Source: a virus (taxonomy: Duplodnaviria > Heunggongvirae > Uroviricota > Caudoviricetes). Taken from it: a stretch of 23,390 nucleotides of DNA. Below the pieces are notes generated by a model. That model ran no database searches and had not been told where the DNA came from. It was given only the letters and a program-made list of their open reading frames with translations. Where the stretch lies: IMG/VR virus record IMGVR_UViG_2537561977_000031, positions 1-23,390 of that record; one strand, given 5' to 3'. This document shows positions 875 to 18,844 of this stretch, piece by piece. The position numbers were made by a program, and so were the translations under genes. Numbering within the stretch: position 1 is the stretch's first letter; every line of letters begins with the position of its first letter.

Positions 875-1177
875 CATGTAATTTATGAGTGTCTTCTGCT
901 TGATTCCTCTGCTGGCGAGGATTTTTTCGTAGCGATCAAGCCATGAATGTAACGTAACAGAATTATCACTGTTGATTCTCGCTGTCAGAGGCTTGTGTTT
1001 GTGTCCTGAAAATAACTCAATGTTGGCCTGTATAGCTTCAGTGATTGCGATTCGCCTGTCTCGGCCTAATCCAAACTCTTTACCCGTCCTTGGGTCCCTG
1101 TAGCAGTAATATCCATTGTTTCTTATATAAAGGTTAGGGGGTAAATCCCGGCGCTCATGACTTCGCCTTCTTCCCAT
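875..1177 (-). pseudogene. int: Lambda-type integrase, N-terminal arm-binding fragment only (101 codons), cut by the IS3-family insertion
   Basis: ORF 872..1177 starts MGRRRSHERRDLPPNLYIRNNGYYCYRDPRTGKEFGLGRDRRIAITEAIQANIELF..., matching lambda Int as I recall it, then runs into the IS terminus; catalytic domain absent. Confidence 0.9.
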
Positions 1178-1373
1178 TTCTGATCCTCTTCAAAAGGCTA
1201 CCTGTTACTGGTCGATTTAAGTCAACCTTTACCGCTGATTCGTGGAACAAATACTCTCTTCCATCCTTAACCGGAGGAGGGAATATCCTGCACTCGCGTA
1301 CCCATCGACGAACTGTTTCAAGGCTCCTTGGGCGTCGCTGGCGTGCGTTCCACTCCTGAAGTGTCAAGTACAT
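1155..1373 (-). CDS. xis: Excisionase Xis (lambda-type, 72 aa)
   Basis: MYLTLQEWNARQRRPRSLETVRRWVRECRIFPPPVKDGREYLFHESAVKVDLNRP...; overlaps int start by 23 nt as in lambda. Confidence 0.9.
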   Translation of the reverse strand: MYLTLQEWNARQRRPRSLETVRRWVRECRIFPPPVKDGREYLFHESAVKVDLNRPVTGSLLKRIRNGKKAKS

Positions 1374-1429
1374 CGCAAAGTCTCCGCAATTACTCGCAAG
1401 GGAGCGAGTATTGGTTTATTTTCTCCAAC

Positions 1430-1449
1430 AAAAAAGGAGCCGAAGCTCC
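1430..1449 (-). terminator. Candidate rho-independent terminator between the AntA-like gene and xis
   Basis: Minus-strand hairpin GGAGC-TTCG-GCTCC followed by TTTTTT. Confidence 0.4.
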
Positions 1450-1457
1450 TTTGATGA

Positions 1458-2081
1458 TTAAAATTCGAATTGTCTCGCCCGAAGGCTTTTCAGCATTGGT
1501 TTTGCCCGTTCGAAAAGGGCGCTTGCTTGGTCAAGTCGTGTCGCCTCCCTTAGCAGTACATCTCTGTTTTTCGTCACCGTGTAAAAAGTTTCAAACGCGA
1601 TGTCATACAGCTTGCTCGTGTATGATGAGTTCAGTTCCTTCAATATCGGGTACAGACGTTTGCAGATGTCCTGCGCATTCTCCATCTGTACCTGCATATA
1701 GCAAAGGAGGATGATTTCTTCGTCTGTGAATTGCTGCGCTGGTTGCATGCTGCGAAGTTTCTTTTCGCACTCGATGAAGTATCGGCGTATCTGGCGGCCT
1801 TTTTCGTTACGCTCGACCATCGCCGTTTCTTTGGCTGTATCGAGGGTGAGGTGATAGTCTTTGCTACGGCGATCGCCTCCACGTCCTTTGATCCCCCTGT
1901 TTTGGTGAACCAAAATGTAATCGACATCAACGGCAAAGCCGTATTCTGTTATGCGATTTTTAATCCATGTAGAGAAGTCACGACGTACTTCCAAAAATTC
2001 GTGTAAATCACGGGCATTAACGAGAAGAGTTGTTTCGTTGGATATAGTGCCGTTGAATACGGGGATGAGTTGACTGGTCAT
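1458..2081 (-). CDS. Phage antirepressor-like protein (AntA/AntB-type N-terminal domain), 207 aa
   Basis: ORF with AAGGAC SD before the ATG; N-terminal LIPVFNGT...LLVNARDLHEFLEV..DFSTWIKNRITEYGF pattern resembling AntA/AntB family; family assignment from memory. Confidence 0.5.
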   Translation of the reverse strand: MTSQLIPVFNGTISNETTLLVNARDLHEFLEVRRDFSTWIKNRITEYGFAVDVDYILVHQNRGIKGRGGDRRSKDYHLTLDTAKETAMVERNEKGRQIRRYFIECEKKLRSMQPAQQFTDEEIILLCYMQVQMENAQDICKRLYPILKELNSSYTSKLYDIAFETFYTVTKNRDVLLREATRLDQASALFERAKPMLKSLRARQFEF

Positions 2082-2230
2082 TTTTATGTCCTTTGCATTT
2101 GTTCAGATAGCCCTGTGTTCAGCAGGGCGGTCAGGTACTTGAACACCGTGCAAAGTCGGCCCGTATCCTTAACCTTTCGGCTGTTTTTCGGTATACGCGC
2201 TACCCGACCATATCTGAAAAATGGACATAA

Positions 2231-2258
2231 AAAATCCGCATGACTGACGGGTGCGGTT
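2231..2258 (-). terminator. Weak candidate terminator downstream of the ORF6N gene
   Basis: Minus-strand hairpin CCGCA...TGCGG followed by ATTTTTTA. Confidence 0.3.
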
Positions 2259-2402
2259 TCCGCTTTGCAAGGTGTGTTCAGCACCATGAAGCGGAATATA
2301 GCCCCGTTAATGCGGTGTTGTCAAATCATGTAGGCCTTATCTTGCTGTAAGCCGCGCCATTCGGGCTTTTCCCCACATTTGGGGAAAACTATCTTGTCAA
2401 AA

Positions 2403-3185
2403 TCATGCAGCCTTTCGCCCTCCTTCGATGAGTTCCTCTATTTTGTGCACTCCAGCCTCGTTGTACCGAAATGTTTCAACCTGCTTGTCATTGTGCGCCG
2501 ATTTGTCGATGAACCACTTCCCGTACTTTTCTGTTTTGAGCATGTAGGTGTTGGCTATGCGTCCTACCTTGTTGGCTGAAATACCGTAGCGCTGGCCGAC
2601 TTCCGTAGCAGAGTAGTAGTGCTCTGAGATAGCTGGCAGAGGTACAACATCGCGACCAACAATCGGGTTGAACACTCCAGCTACTGCTGCCTGCTTTGAT
2701 TCTGAGGACAGATTCGGGAACATATTCACCAGTCGATCCGCCACGTTCAAAGCTATTTCCATGGCTCGCGCACGGTCTAGGCTACTTTCTGGTTGCGGTA
2801 CTGGTTGAGGATGGTTGGCAACCTTTTCGCGCTGATTGAAGTAGCCGTCCTCCAGTTTTTCGAACACGTCCCATGCCTGATCCGTTTCGAGCATCTTCGC
2901 GTGACGGGCGGCTCCGCGCTCTGTCCAGAGGATGAGGTGGCGTGCATTTGGGGCAATTTTCACAAAGTAGTTTAAAGCTACTTTGTGTTTTAGCGCGCGC
3001 AGCTCGTCACCAACGACCTTGTAGAAGTGTACCCCCTCAACAAAGCGCGACTTGTTTTCATGATGGTTTTGCCGGATGCGCACAACATCCGTTCCGTACA
3101 ACTGCGCCAATAGTTCGCTGGTGATGACGTTGGTTTGTTTGTAGGTGATTGGTGAAAGTGTTTCAACAGAAATTTGAGCATTCAT
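2403..3185 (-). CDS. ORF6N-domain antirepressor-like protein, 260 aa
   Basis: GAGGA SD before ATG; N-terminal domain with HHENKSRF...[22 protein letters not shown], close paralog of the N-terminus of ORF 17062..17748. Confidence 0.7.
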   Translation of the reverse strand: MNAQISVETLSPITYKQTNVITSELLAQLYGTDVVRIRQNHHENKSRFVEGVHFYKVVGDELRALKHKVALNYFVKIAPNARHLILWTERGAARHAKMLETDQAWDVFEKLEDGYFNQREKVANHPQPVPQPESSLDRARAMEIALNVADRLVNMFPNLSSESKQAAVAGVFNPIVGRDVVPLPAISEHYYSATEVGQRYGISANKVGRIANTYMLKTEKYGKWFIDKSAHNDKQVETFRYNEAGVHKIEELIEGGRKAA

Positions 3186-3251
3186 AGCGTCCTCACATTG
3201 GCTTTTGCATTGAAGAAAGCTTGACGGTGAACTCGCCGTAACGAGTTCAGA

Positions 3252-3286
3252 TAAAAGAAATCCCCGCGAGTGCGAGGATTGTTATT
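3252..3286 (-). terminator. Candidate rho-independent terminator
   Basis: Minus-strand hairpin ATCCTCGC-ACTC-GCGGGGAT followed by TTCTTTTAT. Confidence 0.45.
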
Positions 3287-3309
3287 TACCTTTGACGGCA
3301 AGTTGCAGG

Positions 3310-3528
3310 TTAGCCACGGTTAACCTCCTGCGGCGGTTCTGGTAGCTGCATCCAGTGGGTTACCTCTTTGAGATACAGGTCTTCGCCATCACCGTCATCC
3401 CAAGTGGGATTGCCATCATTAAACCAGTCGCCATATACGCCGACCTGAGTGTTGGGGATGTTTGGTGGGTAGTTGTTTTTAAAGTCAGCTGTTAACACAT
3501 AGCATTGTCGCTCTCCCATTTCTGGCAT
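3310..3528 (-). CDS. Small phage protein, DUF551-like (72 aa)
   Basis: C-terminal THWMQLPEPP motif recalled as typical of DUF551 prophage proteins. Confidence 0.55.
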   Translation of the reverse strand: MPEMGERQCYVLTADFKNNYPPNIPNTQVGVYGDWFNDGNPTWDDGDGEDLYLKEVTHWMQLPEPPQEVNRG

Positions 3529-3546
3529 TCGCTCACTACAGCTTAT

Positions 3547-3840
3547 CTAGGCATCCGGAGTTACCGGCACTGGCTGGGCGGTATAAAGCGGTGTTATATC
3601 TGCCCGAAAATTACATGCTTTATGCAGCCGCACCCACCGTTCGACTTCTGCTTTGTCAGAATACATACCAGTGAACGTGTTATATTCACGGTCAATTTGC
3701 GTGAAGGTTACCTTCCACGCCACCGGCTCTGCTGTCAGCGATGCCAGAGCAATTTCATAAGCACGGCGTTCAACATTGTCTCGCACATCCAAACTGCTGA
3801 TACGCTCTTTGATTTCTTTAATCAGTTCTTTGTCGTTCAC
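3547..3840 (-). CDS. Hypothetical phage protein (97 aa)
   Basis: ORF in compact minus-strand early-left operon; no recognisable family. Confidence 0.55.
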   Translation of the reverse strand: MNDKELIKEIKERISSLDVRDNVERRAYEIALASLTAEPVAWKVTFTQIDREYNTFTGMYSDKAEVERWVRLHKACNFRADITPLYTAQPVPVTPDA

Positions 3841-3920
3841 TTATGCCTCCGATTCCCGGATGTCACCCAAATCAACGCTACAATGCCAACCAGTGCAACG
3901 AGCGCAAAACTATCAAGCAT
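3841..3920 (-). CDS. Small hydrophobic peptide (26 aa), candidate
   Basis: MLDSFALVALVGIVALIWVTSGNRRHK; its ATG overlaps the stop of the upstream Ea22-like gene (ATGCTTGA) suggesting translational coupling; below ORF-track threshold. Confidence 0.3.
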
Positions 3921-4416
3921 CTCCAACCTCTTTAACGGTAACTGTCTGTGCCTCCAGTTCTGCTATGCGCTTTTCTGAGGCTTCAAGTAACGCCTGCTTA
4001 TCGCGTAGCGCTTCTTCCAGTTCAGCAACATGGCATTCACTATCAATAAGGTTGTTCTCTGCTGCTTCCAGCTCAACACGCAACTTCCCTACCGTTAGCG
4101 CAATTTCCTCGTTCTCCTGATCGCGGCTTTTGATGTATTGCAGGTTTCTTTCCCGTTCATCCAGTAGTGCCAGCGCAACATTTGGATTAAAAGCAGCAAT
4201 AAATTCAGCGTTTGCATAAGCCTGAACATCTGTTTCAACCAGGCAGTTAACATGACATTCCGCAATCACACCACCGGGTTCTCCTTTCCATTTTTGACAA
4301 ACAAAAACTCCTGTTATATTCCCATGCTGATTGCCCGATGTATGCCCTACGATGTAGCTCCCTTTCGTTGCCTTTTCTGCCGCATCACGCAGTGCCTGAT
4401 AATTAATTTCGCTCAC
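3913..4416 (-). CDS. Ead/Ea22-like protein (167 aa, GTG start)
   Basis: MSEINYQALR... and LLDERERNLQYIKSRDQENEEIALTVGKLRVEL coiled-coil region resembling Ea22-like prophage proteins. Confidence 0.6.
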   Translation of the reverse strand: MSEINYQALRDAAEKATKGSYIVGHTSGNQHGNITGVFVCQKWKGEPGGVIAECHVNCLVETDVQAYANAEFIAAFNPNVALALLDERERNLQYIKSRDQENEEIALTVGKLRVELEAAENNLIDSECHVAELEEALRDKQALLEASEKRIAELEAQTVTVKEVGDA

Positions 4417-4538
4417 TTCGAACCTCTCTGTTTACTGATAAGCTCCAGATCTGCATTAAGCGCAGCAAAAATCTCTGGTGGTGTGCGCCAGCTGTCGCGA
4501 TGTTCGGCAGGAGTATTGCTTCCGGTGAAATCAGTCAT
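4413..4538 (-). CDS. Small ORF (41 aa), candidate
   Basis: [41 protein letters not shown]; start overlaps upstream stop (ATGA) and stop overlaps Ea22-like GTG (GTGA). Confidence 0.35.
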   Translation of the reverse strand: MTDFTGSNTPAEHRDSWRTPPEIFAALNADLELISKQRGSK

Positions 4539-4693
4539 ACAGCCCCCCGTTTATTATTTATCTCCTCAGCCAGCCGCTGTGCTTTCAGTGGATTTCTGAT
4601 AACAGAAAGGCCGGGAAATACCCAGCCTCGCTTTGTAACGGAGTAGATGAAAGTGATCGCACCTACCCGGATATTATCGCGAGGATGCTTCAT
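4535..4693 (-). CDS. Small ORF (52 aa) immediately downstream of exo, candidate
   Basis: [52 protein letters not shown]; ATG overlaps exo stop (ATGA). Confidence 0.4.
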
Positions 4694-5370
4694 CGCCATT
4701 GCTCCCCAAATACAAAACCAATTTCAGCCAGTGCCTCGTCCATTTTTTCGATGAACTCCGGCACCATCTCGTCAAAATTCGCCATGTACCTTTCATCCCG
4801 CTCAACCACGACATAATGCAGGCCTTCACGCTTCATGCGCGGGTCATAGTTGGCAAAGTACCAGGCATCTTTTCGCGTCACCCACATGCTGTACTGCACC
4901 TGGGCCATGTAAGCCGACTTTATGGCCTCGAAACCACCGAGCCGGAACTTCATGAAATCCCGGGAGGTAAACGGGCATTTCAGCTCAAGGCCATTGCCGT
5001 CACTGCATAAACCATCGGGAGAGCAGGCGGTGCGCATACTTTCGTCGCGATAGATGATCGGGGATTCAGTAACATTCACGCCGGAAGTGAATTCAAACAG
5101 AGTTCTGGCGTCGTTCTCGTACTGTTTTCCCCATGCCAGCGCCTTAGCATTAACTTCCGGAGCCACACCGGTGCAAACCTCAGCCAGCAGGGTGTGGAAG
5201 TAGGACATTTTCATGTCAGGCCACTTCTTTCCTGAGCGGGGCTTTGCTATCACGTTGTGAACTTCTGAAGCGGTGATGACGCCGAGCCGTAATTTGTGCC
5301 ACGCATCATCTCCCTGCTCGATAGCTCTCACGTCGATCCCGGTACGCTGCAGGATAATGTCCGGTGTCAT
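4690..5370 (-). CDS. exo: Lambda-type exonuclease (Red alpha)
   Basis: 226 aa, [54 protein letters not shown]... matches lambda Exo as I recall it. Confidence 0.95.
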
Positions 5371-6152
5371 GCTGCCACCTTCTGTTCAGTGGCTTTTTGT
5401 TTCAGGAATCCAAGAGCTTTCACTGCTTCGGCCTGTGTCAGTTCTGACGATGCGCGAATGTCGCGGCGAAATATCTGGGAACAGAGCGGCAATAAGTCGT
5501 CATCCCATGTTTTATCCAGGGCGATCAGCAGAGTGTTAATCTCCTGCATGGTTTCATCGTTAACCGGAGTGATGTCGCGTTCCGGCTGACGTTCTGCAGT
5601 GTATGCGGTATTTTCGACAATGCGCTCGGCTTCATCCTTGTCATAGATACCAGCAAATCCGAAGGCGAGACGGGCACACTGAATCATGGTTTTATGACGT
5701 AACATCCGTTTGGGATGCGACTGCCACGGTCCGGTGATTTCTCTGCCTTCGCGGGTTTTGAATGGTTCGCGGCGGCATTCATCCATCCACTCGGTAACGC
5801 AGATCGGATGATTGCGGTCCTTGCGGTAAATCCGGCATGTGCAGGATTCATTGTCCTGCTCAAAGTCCATACCATCAAACTGCTGGTTTTCATTGATGAT
5901 GCGGGACCAGCCATCAACGCCCACCACCGGAACGATGCCGTTCTGCTTATCAGGGAAGGCGTAAATTTCTTTCGTCCACGGATTAAGGCCGTACTGGTTG
6001 GCGACGATCAACAATGCGATGAACTGCGCATCGCTGGCATCACCTTTAAATGCCGTCTGGCGAAGAGTGGTGATCAGTTCTTGTGGGTCGACAGAATCCA
6101 TGCCGACACGTTCAGCCAGCTTCCCAGCCAGCGTTGCGAGTGCTGTACTCAT
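5367..6152 (-). CDS. bet: Lambda-type Bet (Red beta) single-strand annealing protein
   Basis: 261 aa, [59 protein letters not shown]... Confidence 0.95.
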
Positions 6153-6157
6153 CCGTT

Positions 6158-6453
6158 TTATACCTCTGAATCAATATCAACCTGGTGGTGAGCAATGGTT
6201 TCAACCATGTACTGGATGTGTTCTGCCATGCGCTCCTGAAACTCAACATCGTCATCAAACGCACGGGTAATGGCTTTTTTGCTGGCCCCGTGGCGTTGCA
6301 AATGATCGATGCATAGCGATTCAAACAGGTGCTGGGGCAGGCCTTTTTCCATGTCGTCTGCCAGTTCTGCCTCTTTCTCTTCACGGGCGAGCTGCTGGTA
6401 GTGACGCGCCCAGCTCTGAGCCTCAAGACGATCCTGAATGTAATAAGCGTTCA
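6158..6453 (-). pseudogene. gam: gam remnant, N-terminally truncated by IS1 (retains residues matching lambda Gam from [14 protein letters not shown]... to the C-terminus)
   Basis: Minus-strand translation upstream of the 64-aa track ORF continues in frame as ...[40 protein letters not shown]... up to the IS1 boundary; no start codon remains. Confidence 0.85.
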
Positions 6454-6468
6454 GGTAATGACTCCAAC

Positions 6469-6972
6469 TTACTGATAGTGTTTTATGTTCAGATAATGCC
6501 CGATGACCTTGTCATGCAGCTCCACCGATTTTGAGAACGACAGTGACTTCCGTCCCAGCCTTGCCAGATGTTGTCTCAGATTCAGATTATGTCGCTCAAT
6601 GCGCTGAGTGTAACGCTTGCTGATAACGTGCAGCTTTCCCTTCAGGCGTGATTCATACAGCGGCCAGCCATCCGTCATCCATACCACGACCTCAAAGGCC
6701 GACAGCAGGCTCAGAAGACGCTCCAGTGTGGCCAGAGTGCGTTCACCGAAGACGTGCGCCACAACCGTCCTCCGTATCCTGTCATACGCGTAAAACAGCC
6801 AGCGCTGACGTGATTTAGCACCGACGTAGCCCCACTGTTCGTCCATTTCAGCGCAGACAATCACATCACTGCCCGGTTGTATGCGCGAGGTTACCGACTG
6901 CGGCCTGAGTTTTTTAAGTGACGTAAAACCGTGTTGAGGCCAACGCCCATAATGCGTGCACTGGCGCGACAT
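6469..6972 (-). CDS. insB: IS1 transposase InsB
   Basis: 167 aa ORF, ...[19 protein letters not shown]... Confidence 0.9.
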
Positions 6973-7166
6973 CCGACGCCATTCATGGCCATATCAATGA
7001 TTTTCTGGTGCGTACCGGGCTGAGAGGCGGTGTAAGTGAACTGTAGTTGCCATGTTTTACGGCAATGAGAGCAGAGATAGCGCTGATGTCCGGCAGTGCT
7101 TTTGCCGTTACGCACCACGCCTTCAGTAGCGGAGCAGGAAGGACATCTGATGGAAATGGAAGCCAC
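6891..7166 (-). CDS. insA: IS1 InsA
   Basis: 91 aa, [43 protein letters not shown]... Confidence 0.9.
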
Positions 7167-7221
7167 GCAAGCACCTTAAAATCACCATCATACACTAAAT
7201 CAGTAAGTTGGCAGCATTACC

Positions 7222-7374
7222 CACAATCAGACTGATACGCTTGGCTTCATCTTTTGTCAGGTCGCGAGGCAGGTTGCCAATGGTGACGATAAGATCTCCG
7301 CGCAATGGAATCGGCAGTTCAAATGTTTTTACACCAACCTGTACGTCAGCTACCGCCTTCTTCTTAGGTGCCAT
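7222..7374 (-). pseudogene. Unknown early-left gene, C-terminally truncated by IS1 (51 codons remain)
   Basis: GGAG SD 9 nt before ATG at 7374; MAPKKKAVADVQVGVKTFELPIPLRGDLIVTIGNLPRDLTKDEAKRISLIV then reads into IS1. Confidence 0.4.
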
Positions 7375-7715
7375 CTTTTTACGCTCCTTTTTTTATTTAC
7401 ATCACCAACTGACACATTAATCTCACCATTCTGGTAGGAGATAAATTTATCAATAGCACTTTGCATTCGGCTTTTGTATGCCTGCAAAGATGATTCAGAA
7501 GGTTTGCTTTCTGCTGAGTCTGCGTACGAACTTGCTAAGTTGGCAACGCTATAATCACGGATATCGGCATCGGTGAAATCCGACCCAAGAACAGTAAGAA
7601 GGCGCAGGGAAGAGTCACGGAGATTGCGGGCTGTAGCATCATTGACGATACCAAGCTCAGGAAGCATCTGTAAGAAGTCCTGAAATGCTTTGATGGTGTA
7701 GCTTTTGGTTTGCAT
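7350..7715 (-). CDS. Hypothetical protein (121 aa), Arg-rich C-terminus; no SD, ATG directly follows a hairpin/T-run
   Basis: Track ORF; compositionally protein-like; start context unusual. Confidence 0.4.
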   Translation of the reverse strand: MQTKSYTIKAFQDFLQMLPELGIVNDATARNLRDSSLRLLTVLGSDFTDADIRDYSVANLASSYADSAESKPSESSLQAYKSRMQSAIDKFISYQNGEINVSVGDVNKKRSVKRWHLRRRR

Positions 7716-7741
7716 AAAAAAGCCTCATACAGTTGATGAGG
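7715..7741 (-). terminator. Candidate terminator of the cI operon (or structured element at the start of the 121-aa ORF)
   Basis: Minus-strand hairpin GCCTCAT-CAACTGT-ATGAGGC followed by TTTTT. Confidence 0.35.
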
Positions 7742-7904
7742 CAATACTAATTTGATCGTCAAAACAAATCAAGACCCAAGAAACGATCGTTGATTCCTTT
7801 CTTTGTGACAATACAGTCAAATCAAGTTTTACAAGGATTACTTTTCTTCGATTACATTAAAGGCCGCACTTCTGCGACCATCCATCACCAAAATGTCTCT
7901 TCAC

Positions 7905-8246
7905 TCATCCGAAGAAGCAGCAATCCGGGTCAGCACGCACAAGCTCAAGCGCATCAGTCAGCGAAAGTTCAGTACTGTACTGATGCCATTTCATATCCTT
8001 CCGCATCCAATAGATTTTCCATCTATCCAGAGAACGTATGTACTTGATTCTTGCTGATGGCAGGATGTTTGTTTCACCTGGGTTGCCCTGCCACACGGGG
8101 CGCTGTTCGCCGATATCTATCGTTTGGTCATTGATGCTATAAACAATATCCAGTTCATTGCGGATATGTTCAGGCGGCCTTATGCTTTCAATGAATTGGT
8201 GAACTTCTTTTTTGACCGCTTGATATTCAAGGTCAGTGAACGCCAT
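7905..8246 (-). CDS. Hypothetical protein (113 aa) directly downstream of cI, same strand
   Basis: Strong SD GAGGAGG 4-5 nt before ATG; only 37 bp after the cI stop; occupies the position of lambda rexAB. Confidence 0.7.
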   Translation of the reverse strand: MAFTDLEYQAVKKEVHQFIESIRPPEHIRNELDIVYSINDQTIDIGEQRPVWQGNPGETNILPSARIKYIRSLDRWKIYWMRKDMKWHQYSTELSLTDALELVRADPDCCFFG

Positions 8247-8283
8247 CTATCCTCCTCACCCAAACGTTTCTTCAGGCCACTGG

Positions 8284-8991
8284 TTACCAGCTATGCGATG
8301 ACCAGAATACTCTGCCAATAATCCTTACGGTTTTATGAAATTCATCTCTATCCATTACTTCATCCGGGTACTCTTCGCGATTTATTGATCTGATTATCAC
8401 CGATGTAGGAGTGGCGATTAATGTTTTTACTCGCAACAAATCAGACTGGCAAATAGCGTAGGTTTTACCATCTCTGATGGTGGTATCTTGTGTGTTAACA
8501 CCAACAACATCGCCATCGTGAAGAGTTGGTTCCATGCTTTGACCTGTTACCCTTACCAGCTTGGCAGAACTTTCAGTTACCCCCATCTTTTTCAGATAGT
8601 ACTTTCTGAAAACCAAAGAGAACTCTGATGATTCTTCTATCTCGCAGCTACCGCTTCCAGCCGAAAGCGAAACGTTAAGAAGAGGCAATGCGACAAACTC
8701 GTCATCGTTTTTTTTAATGTCTTCCCATACCACAGCTTTTAAAGATGACTCACGGATATTGGATGGTTCTTCATGTGTACCATCCCTCATTTCACCAATA
8801 CCAGAACTAAGCCATTCAGGGCGTACTTTTAAAGCATTAGCTAACTCAACCATCTTGCGAGATCCGTTTGTTTTACCGGATGACATCTTCTGTATGGCTG
8901 GCTGAGATATTCCAACCATGTCCGCAAGCTGTGATTGCGACACCCCTGCCGATCTCATGGCTGCATTTAGTCTTTCTGCGAATGTTTTCAT
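8284..8991 (-). CDS. cI: CI-type prophage repressor (N-terminal HTH, C-terminal S24 LexA-like peptidase); start likely at Met 8991 (track ORF begins at a TTG at 9021)
   Basis: HTH segment QSQLADMVGISQPAIQKMSSG; peptidase motif GQSMEPTLHDGD with downstream Lys; divergent from cro. Confidence 0.85.
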   Translation of the reverse strand: MKTFAERLNAAMRSAGVSQSQLADMVGISQPAIQKMSSGKTNGSRKMVELANALKVRPEWLSSGIGEMRDGTHEEPSNIRESSLKAVVWEDIKKNDDEFVALPLLNVSLSAGSGSCEIEESSEFSLVFRKYYLKKMGVTESSAKLVRVTGQSMEPTLHDGDVVGVNTQDTTIRDGKTYAICQSDLLRVKTLIATPTSVIIRSINREEYPDEVMDRDEFHKTVRIIGRVFWSSHSW

Positions 8992-9102
8992 ATCCACAAA
9001 TCTATAACTACGGTTATCCAAAGTAAAATAATAAAGGTTATTGCTATCTTTTATAACTTGGGTTATCCTTGGTTATAAGTAATGGCTGAAAGAGGTATGC
9101 TC
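8992..9102. promoter_or_regulatory. Divergent operator/promoter region (OR-like) between cI and cro
   Basis: Two 14-bp palindromes ATAAC-N4-GTTAT at 9004-9017 and 9051-9064 plus further GTTAT/TTATAA half-sites. Confidence 0.5.
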
Positions 9103-9327
9103 ATGAATTTAGTAATTCAACGAGCCTTGAAGATTGTCGGTAGTCAAAAGCGGCTTGCCGACAAGTGTGGTGTAACGCAGCCAGCAGTACACAAATGGCT
9201 GAAAGGCGGGCAGGTTTCTCCAGAGAAAGTTACCGCCATCGTTAACGCCACTGGAGGGCAGATCAAGGCTTACGAAATTCGCCCAGATTTACCACACCTG
9301 TTTCCAAAACCGAATCAGGCAGCATAA
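9103..9327 (+). CDS. cro: Cro-like HTH regulator (74 aa; alternative starts at 9082/9097)
   Basis: SD AGAGG 7 nt before ATG 9103; HTH QKRLADKCGVTQPAVHKWLKG; position divergent from cI. Confidence 0.7.
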   Translation: MNLVIQRALKIVGSQKRLADKCGVTQPAVHKWLKGGQVSPEKVTAIVNATGGQIKAYEIRPDLPHLFPKPNQAA

Positions 9328-9334
9328 GTAACAC

Positions 9335-9380
9335 CGCTATTTTCACAATGGGCATTCGTCCTACGTCGCTGACAAAGCGA
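9335..9380 (+). promoter_or_regulatory. Candidate nutR-like site: boxA-like CGCTATTTT and boxB-like hairpin TCGCT-GACAA-AGCGA
   Basis: 5-bp stem with GACAA pentaloop (P22-type boxB loop) located between cro and cII. Confidence 0.3.
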
Positions 9381-18077: not shown

Positions 18078-18844
18078 ATGCCGTAATTATTGCCAACGCA
18101 GAAATCGTGCCGATTGAGTTTAATGGCGAGCGTGTTGTTACGTATCAAATGATTGCTGATATTCACGGGGTTCCAGTAGCCACTATTCAAAATGGCTATG
18201 CGCGAAACTCTGAGTATTTCATAGACAGGGAAGATACATATTTTATTGATTTTCATGAAAATACCTTTAGAAGGGGTTTTGAAATTCCTCCTCGTGGCAT
18301 GCGAGTTTTCACTGAATCAGGCTATTTGATGCTGGTTAAAACCCTGCGCGACGAGACGGCGTGGAGAGTGCAACGTGAGCTTGTTCGCAATTATTTTCGT
18401 GGCCAAAAAGAAGATAAGTCAGCCTTGCCCGACTTCACAAACCCTGCTGAAGCCGCCAGAGCGTGGGCAAACGAATATGAGCAGAAAGTGAAGCTGGAGC
18501 AACAACTCGCGATTGCCGCACCTAAAGTTGAGTTTGCCGATCGCGTTGGCGAGGCCAGCGGAATTTTGATTGGAAACTTTGCAAAGGTTGTTGGTATTGG
18601 CCCAAACAAACTGTTTGCGTGGATGCGTGATCACAAAATCCTTATTGCTTCAGGTTCCCGGCGCAATGTGCCAATGCAGGAATATATGGATCGCGGCTAT
18701 TTCACAGTGAAAGAAACAGCGGTCAACACAAATCACGGAATACAGATATCGTTCACCACAAAAATCACCGGGCGTGGTCAACAGTGGCTGACCAGAAAGC
18801 TGCTCGATAACGGAATGCTGAAAGTAACAGGGGAGGCTGCATGA
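18074..18844 (+). CDS. Phage antirepressor (ORF6N-like N-terminal domain plus KilAC C-terminal domain), 256 aa
   Basis: SD AAGGAGG; C-terminal FADRVGEASGILIGNFAKVVGIGPNKLFAWMRDHKILI...RRNVPMQEYMDRGYFTV resembles KilAC; ATG overlaps Rha stop. Confidence 0.7.
   Translation: MNAVIIANAEIVPIEFNGERVVTYQMIADIHGVPVATIQNGYARNSEYFIDREDTYFIDFHENTFRRGFEIPPRGMRVFTESGYLMLVKTLRDETAWRVQRELVRNYFRGQKEDKSALPDFTNPAEAARAWANEYEQKVKLEQQLAIAAPKVEFADRVGEASGILIGNFAKVVGIGPNKLFAWMRDHKILIASGSRRNVPMQEYMDRGYFTVKETAVNTNHGIQISFTTKITGRGQQWLTRKLLDNGMLKVTGEAA

Follow-up and report, generated by a model that had tools for sequence, protein, structure and literature searches.

The DNA analysed here (hereafter the window, meaning the whole stretch of 23,390 nucleotides) is a decaying lambdoid prophage integrated beside ybhC. 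Its sequence matches contig ADUP01000053.1 from the draft assembly GCA_000188815.2 with 100% identity; the quality of this draft sequence is not beyond doubt. The minus strand carries the recombination genes exo (4690-5370) and bet (5367-6152). Both are intact ORFs, and both were identified through the annotation of a sister prophage, locus L001, which is introduced below. They are followed by gam, a copy of IS1 and a cut ORF that begins with MAPKKK. Farther to the right lie a DUF3024 gene (7905-8246, minus strand; Pfam) and a cI-like repressor gene (8284-8991, minus strand; Pfam and L001 annotation). The DUF3024 gene, which matches PADLOC PDC-S43 with E = 7e-42, is located directly downstream of cI, and PDC-S43 is a candidate defence family in PADLOC.

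Two further IS elements interrupt the prophage. An IS3-family element of about 1.25 kb, with a 279-aa rve-domain ORF at 27-866, occupies positions 1-874 and continues for about 375 bp beyond the start of the window. It splits the prophage int gene and matches positions 2432-3680 of locus L013 in reverse complement. The flanks of this element overlap by 3 bp in L001 coordinates. Such an overlap suggests a simple insertion that duplicated 3 bp, unlike the case of IS1, and it served as an internal control. The third element is ISEc20 of the IS110 family, the transposase gene of which (10291-11487, minus strand) lies inside an HTH_36 replication gene. A 21-bp indel relative to L001 adjoins ISEc20 at 10219-10239.

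The IS1 copy is complete. It is 768 bp long, spans 6454-7221 and is oriented on the minus strand, as read directly from the sequence and its inverted repeats. The right inverted repeat (IRR) lies at 6454-6476 and the left one (IRL) at 7199-7221. The terminal repeats are GGTAATGACTCCAACTTACTGAT on the left and GGTAATGCTGCCAACTTACTGAT on the right (reverse complement), and both the length and these imperfect repeats of about 23 bp, which start with GGTAATG, are those of an IS1-family element. The coding region agrees with this assignment. The insA gene (6891-7166, minus strand, 91 aa) matches the Pfam profiles Zn_ribbon_InsA and HTH_Tnp_IS1 with E = 5e-30, as well as NCBIfam transpos_IS1. The insB' frame (6469-6972, minus strand), a 167-aa ORF, matches Pfam DDE_Tnp_IS1 with E = 1e-74. 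The profiles concerned are PF03811, PF12759, PF03400 and NF033558. Both insA and insB' are intact, and the A6C motif AAAAAAC for the -1 frameshift is found at about 6909-6915, position 307 of IS1 counted from the IRL. The transposase genes are co-directional with gam-bet-exo, and the window contains this single copy of IS1.

The initial annotation had placed IS1 at 6454-7221 between two 9-bp flanks that are not duplicated. On re-reading, the coordinates and both flanks proved exact: the flanks are AAGCGTTCA at 6445-6453 and CACAATCAG at 7222-7230. A simple IS1 insertion usually carries a 9-bp target-site duplication, rarely one of 8-14 bp. Direct repeats of 5-14 bp, a range that covers the 8-9 bp repeat sought on re-inspection, were looked for at the two IS1 junctions, and none was found. 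The absence of a duplication is what is expected of a rearranged copy, and it concerns the history of the copy rather than the identity of the element.

On the left side of IS1, gam retains codons 2-98 and its stop codon (6158-6453, minus strand). The Pfam Gam profile matches with E = 2e-63 over positions 2-98 of 98. In alignments with the 98-residue Gam chains of PDB entries 5mbv and 2uuz, residues 2-98 are aligned, with 3 substitutions in 97 residues relative to 5mbv. The similarity to the 98-residue functional form (PF06064) is thus full-length. The initiator ATG has become CTG, the C of which is contributed by IS1, and the AGGAG sequence in front of it is gone. The gene therefore lacks both its start codon and its ribosome-binding site. 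The gam frame stays open for 20 codons into IS1, and translation of this frame into IS1 revealed no ATG, GTG or TTG ahead of Met35. The first canonical in-frame start is this Met35 (6352), which would give 64 aa. Judged by its sequence, gam is a start-less pseudogene that would yield at best a 64-aa C-terminal fragment. Such a fragment would lack the first 34 residues; these belong to the N-terminal part with which, to judge from the published structure, Gam probably engages RecBCD.

The initial annotation had described gam as a remnant, truncated almost exactly at the start of the short form of Gam. The position of the cut is right, since the first base of that start codon is the one that was lost. 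The description as a remnant of a longer protein does not hold, since the short start is the sole start of the gene. In L001, the lambda-like upstream ORF of a "long Gam" (MDINTE..., L001 6600-6752, minus strand) is out of frame with gam, so that gam in this lineage encodes the 98-aa protein. What remains in the window is the complete Gam coding sequence minus the start codon and the Shine-Dalgarno sequence.

It is worth noting that the IRR end of IS1 offers GGAG-N7-CTG in place of the native AGGAG-N7-ATG, and that the promoter of IS1 itself is co-directional with gam. By chance, IS1 might thus have rebuilt the initiation region of gam, so that a near-full-length Gam might be weakly translated from transcripts reading through from IS1, and the IS1 promoter might supply a low constitutive level of Gam, Bet and Exo. 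We regard this as extremely improbable. If it were true, these genes would not be dead; they would form a "domesticated" RecBCD inhibitor and Red module uncoupled from cI, pL and N.

On the right side of IS1, the MAPKKK gene is cut, as the initial annotation had stated, and it is its 3' end that is affected. The ORF now present (7195-7374, minus strand) is a chimera of 59 aa, in which 51 native codons (7222-7374) are continued by 8 codons and a stop codon from the IS1 IRL. The IS1-derived tail reads GNAANLLI, and the native C-terminus, ESFAMIDGGTKE, is lost, the missing part being 12 codons and the stop codon. The MAPKKK ORF overlaps a 121-aa ORF (7350-7715, minus strand), which corresponds to the N-terminal part of a 177-aa protein of relatives (phrog_2602). 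This arrangement depends on a homopolymer tract at 7388-7394, T7 on the plus strand and A7 on the coding strand, where L001 and L002 have 8 bases (about 9167 in L001). With the A8 allele, found in L001, phage SH2026Stx1 and other genomes, the Met of MAPKKK is residue 115 of the fused 177-aa protein. With the A7 allele of the window, a 121-aa ORF and an overlapping MAPKKK ORF result, and the intact form of the latter has 63 aa, corresponding to residues 115-177.

The split form is not peculiar to the source assembly. The exact 121-aa protein followed by the 63-aa MAPKKK gene was found in 12 contigs with diverse phage backbones, one complete genome included. An AGGAG sequence stands 9 nt upstream of the MAPKKK ATG, and PHROGs keeps the two forms apart as phrog_2602 (177 aa) and phrog_36396 (63 aa). 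Because the split form occurs elsewhere, has an AGGAG of its own and belongs to a separate PHROGs family, to speak of a "gene starting MAPKKK" is defensible. A -1 shift at AAA-AAA-AGG, which contains a rare Arg codon, would restore the 177-aa fusion in the A7 allele. Phase variation or frameshifting at the A7/A8 tract is conceivable. Searches of Pfam, PADLOC and the PDB gave no match for the 177-aa protein, and its PHROGs matches are families of unknown function only.

To define what had been lost, we compared the window with intact relatives, a comparison that had been suggested with the initial annotation. The sequence to the right of IS1 (7222-9100) matches over its full length six complete E. 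coli genomes and phage SH2026Stx1. The closest match is the prophage of E. coli FDAARGOS_944 (locus L001), which has no IS1. Window positions 875-6453 correspond to L001 1052-6630 with 99.89% identity, 6 mismatches and no gaps, and window positions 7221-18122 correspond to L001 9000-19880 with 99.6% identity. The stretch between these two blocks, L001 6631-9000 (2,370 bp), is missing from the window and IS1 stands in its stead, with both breakpoints at the IS1 termini. At the left junction (6453/6454), window position 6453 equals L001 6630, and the following base of L001 is complementary to the A of the gam ATG. At the right junction (7221/7222), window position 7222 equals L001 9001, with an ambiguity of 1 bp because the terminal C of IS1 is identical to L001 9000. 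No part of the 2,370-bp segment was found when it was sought across the whole window. The two breakpoints in L001 share no microhomology.

The window and L001 are sister prophages, because they share the ISEc20 insertion at the identical site in the replication gene. The segment that is missing from the window is present, in whole or in part, in the independent loci L005, L007 and L009 with 99.3-99.7% identity; L005 and L007 hold 2,253 bp of it at 99.6-99.7% identity. The state of the window is therefore derived by loss and does not reflect a gain elsewhere. The opposite polarity, in which the window would be ancestral and L001 would have gained the segment, is ruled out by several independent phages that are contiguous on each side. 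A simple insertion of IS1 into a phage that already lacked the region was also considered. It is ruled out because no relative joins the two points, and both flanking ORFs are cut in mid-gene with no duplication, which also speaks against it. The window thus carries an IS1-bounded deletion: both breakpoints are the termini of a retained, intact IS1, and the intervening DNA is colinear in an IS1-free relative.

The content of the lost segment can be read from L001. At its left end, the segment contains the A of the gam ATG (L001 6631) and the AGGAG Shine-Dalgarno sequence. These are followed by kil (L001 6707-6850), cIII (L001 6843-6983), a gene of the Nmad5 family (L001 7089-7712; Pfam PF18757, E = 4e-71) and an intact N ORF of 127 aa (L001 7774-8157; phrog_271, "anti-termination protein N-like"), all on the minus strand; kil and cIII are taken from the L001 annotation. 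RefSeq lists N in L001 as just a 69-bp "incomplete antitermination protein", and the ORF is uninterrupted with an arginine-rich N-terminus. The RefSeq fragment looks like an annotation artefact. Upstream of N, and within the lost segment alone, there is a boxB-like hairpin, GCGCTGACAAAGCGC, which we take to be a P22-type boxB (nutL). The palindrome TATAACCTAGGTTATC at L001 8408-8423, the sole exact copy of the operator motif besides the two oR operators, overlaps the spacer of a promoter-like element, TTGACC-17-TATCTT. We read the palindrome and this element as putative oL and pL. A 44-aa ORF (L001 annotation) with a terminator-like hairpin behind it and the last 12 codons and stop codon of the 63/177-aa ORF were lost as well. 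The two oR operators, TATAAC-N4-GTTATC, are retained at window positions 9003-9018 and 9052-9067.

The DUF3024 gene, the 121/63-aa ORFs and the 44-aa ORF occupy the position of lambda rexA/rexB, which are sited between cI and oL/pL. By analogy, this position suggests that these ORFs may be exclusion or defence genes expressed in the lysogen.

According to the initial annotation, no homolog of N, cIII or kil is visible in the window. Searches with tblastn over the whole window, the interval in question included, agree with this statement. The N, CIII, Kil and Nmad5 proteins of the intact relative gave no match in the window better than E = 0.1, and the same was true of lambda N, CIII and Kil; the best value in the N, CIII, Kil and Nmad5 searches was E = 0.12. 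No lambdoid N/nutL/pL module is present to the left of the repressor gene in the window. The deletion removed the entire control head of the early-left operon, beyond N, cIII and kil, and the loss of oL/pL and nutL is an addition to what had been named before. The N gene, nutL and immunity region of the ancestor of the window resembled those of Stx-phage relatives.

The distribution of the two junctions was analyzed with 300-bp probes against 5,426 complete E. coli genomes. Neither IS1 junction was found as a single contiguous match in any of these genomes. Five left-junction matches with a coverage of at least 80% were rejected: each joins two separate pieces, with IS1 placed 300-650 bp farther off, beyond kil or cIII. 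Matches of the H24 type, with the order bet, gam, IS1 and integrase, are unrelated, since IS1 lies beyond a truncated bet. An exact look-up of the 64-aa Gam fragment gives other contigs too; none of them has IS1 alongside, and the fragment was dismissed as evidence of the junction. In several other genomes (H92-H95), IS1 is no more than a few hundred bp distant from gam, kil or cIII. An exact-protein look-up placed the 59-aa chimera in two sources alone, GCA_000188815.2 and a Logan contig of SRR040460. This contig ends 24 nt inside IS1 and, on the other side, at the ISEc20 junction. The IS1 deletion is peculiar to one strain and happened after the insertion of ISEc20, which this strain has in common with FDAARGOS_944. 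Neither the 5,426 complete E. coli genomes nor exact look-ups of the junction ORFs yielded a precursor in which IS1, flanked by a 9-bp duplication, stands at one of the breakpoints.

Since the Logan assembly of SRR040460 does not bridge the element, the possibility of an assembly artefact has to be weighed. Two IS1 copies might flank an intact 2.4-kb segment and might have been collapsed into one in ADUP01000053.1. The window is 100% identical to a contig of a draft whole-genome shotgun assembly, and IS1 is longer than short reads. In addition, the sequence may be imperfect, as all four single-base differences from L001 are indels in homopolymer runs. Besides the tract at 7388-7394, they are located at 13967 (T6/T7), 16428 (G6/G5) and 17784 (T6/T5). 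The differences at these three positions are either real decay or sequencing errors of the draft assembly; the one at 13967 splits a 968-aa toprim primase/helicase-like gene into ORFs of 578 aa and 410 aa. The 462-kb contig, however, resolves three different IS elements in the prophage, and a unique segment of 2.4 kb between repeats is normally placed by mate pairs. Even if the copies had been collapsed, gam and the 63-aa ORF would still be interrupted by IS1 at the same positions. We therefore consider a collapse improbable.

The deletion could have been generated by IS1 in more than one way. The initial annotation had proposed either an adjacent deletion mediated by IS1 or recombination between two IS1 copies, and the colinearity of L001, the lack of a direct repeat and the lack of N and cIII support this proposal. 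In E. coli, missing duplications usually mean one of these two processes (PMC11708052). We moderately favour an insertion of IS1 followed by an IS1-mediated adjacent deletion, by which the early-left operon of the prophage would have been grounded. IS1 would first have inserted at one of the two breakpoints with the normal 9-bp duplication. One end of IS1 would then have attacked a site at a distance of 2.4 kb by intramolecular replicative transposition. The intervening DNA would have been discarded and IS1 kept, leaving two unrelated 9-bp flanks. In long-term evolution lines, all 14 of 14 IS-associated deletions had an earlier insertion at the same site (PMC11708052).

In the second route, two directly oriented IS1 copies, which had entered independently at the gam ATG and in the 63-aa ORF, would have recombined in a RecA-dependent manner, deleting 2.4 kb together with one IS1. 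The product would be as observed, with one IS1 and each flank derived from a different insertion. Three different IS elements are found within 12 kb, so that the genome looks IS-rich, and recombination of this kind is listed as a frequent cause of missing duplications (PMC11708052). This route, however, needs three events within 2.4 kb instead of two. Furthermore, no strain with either single insertion was present among the genomes and proteins searched, and the only IS1 copy in the window is the one at the deletion. It seems to us a rather unlikely course of events, though one to be taken seriously. Adjacent deletion is favoured because it takes two events, one fewer than this second route. 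Both routes lead to the same product, and it is parsimony alone that speaks for one of them and for a particular order of events.

A single step, in which IS1 would have been captured into a double-strand break during a deletion independent of any IS, would likewise leave an IS in the middle of a deletion and no duplication. Such "insertion into breaks" has been proposed for IS5 and IS481 (PMC11708052). It is hypothetical and was put forward for IS families other than IS1. Both junctions lie exactly at the IS1 termini, as the chemistry of the transposase yields, and the breakpoints in L001 have no microhomology, which argues against break capture as well. We consider this explanation very improbable and retain the adjacent deletion as the preferred one.

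The arrangement in the window can be compared with several known systems. IS1-promoted adjacent deletions were reportedly described by Reif and Saedler in 1975 in the gal region of E. coli K-12. As in those deletions, the loss in the window starts exactly at an end of IS1, leaves IS1 intact, shows no duplication and is of kilobase size. The target here is the early region of a prophage and not a chromosomal operon, however, and the event is known from its end product alone. The deletions of the long-term evolution lines of E. coli likewise have an IS at the centre and no duplication, and an insertion with a subsequent adjacent deletion was the explanation given for them. They involve IS150, and their precursors were proven by time series, whereas here the element is IS1 and a single natural end-point is available (PMC11708052).

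A similar truncation of the same operon was found in E. coli 14EC033 (L015, NZ_CP024147.1). At positions 3227-4300, IS1 comes immediately after exo-bet-gam-kil, and genes of the nin region, which are not normally adjacent, come next. Judging from this gene order, 14EC033 has undergone an independent IS1-bounded loss of N, the immunity region and replication genes, and such events recur. Unlike in the window, the break falls after kil and spares gam; far more DNA was lost, and the phage backbone is another one.

Rac and DLP12 of E. coli K-12 are defective prophages that kept recombination genes and lost regulatory and lytic functions through deletions and IS elements. The prophage of the window also keeps its recombination genes after losses of this kind. 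Unlike Rac and DLP12, it is much younger, being more than 99.6% identical to a relative that has the pL-N-kil segment.

The consequences of the deletion were considered from the gene content of the window. The Red genes would have no phage promoter, because oL/pL, nutL and N are gone and IS1 stands between the immunity region and gam-bet-exo. The early-left operon would have been left with no promoter, operator or antiterminator, and bet and exo, as intact ORFs, would be orphaned behind IS1. The toxic kil gene and cIII are gone from the prophage. Together with the IS3-family element in int and ISEc20 in the replication gene, the IS1 deletion would make the prophage non-inducible and harmless. 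The prophage thus appears to be multiply defective, the homopolymer frameshift of the primase/helicase-like gene relative to L001 also being counted, and the IS1 deletion would be one step in its decay.

An IS1-bounded deletion with no target duplication in a cryptic prophage is textbook and routine. The present case is of little import beyond annotation, and it raises no new question on transposition or phage biology. For annotation, gam should be called a pseudogene that has lost its start codon, and the 59-aa ORF a fusion artefact of IS1. The deletion explains the absence of N, cIII, kil and the left promoter in the prophage. It provides one more example, dated to a time after the ISEc20 insertion, of the IS-driven grounding of a lambdoid prophage.
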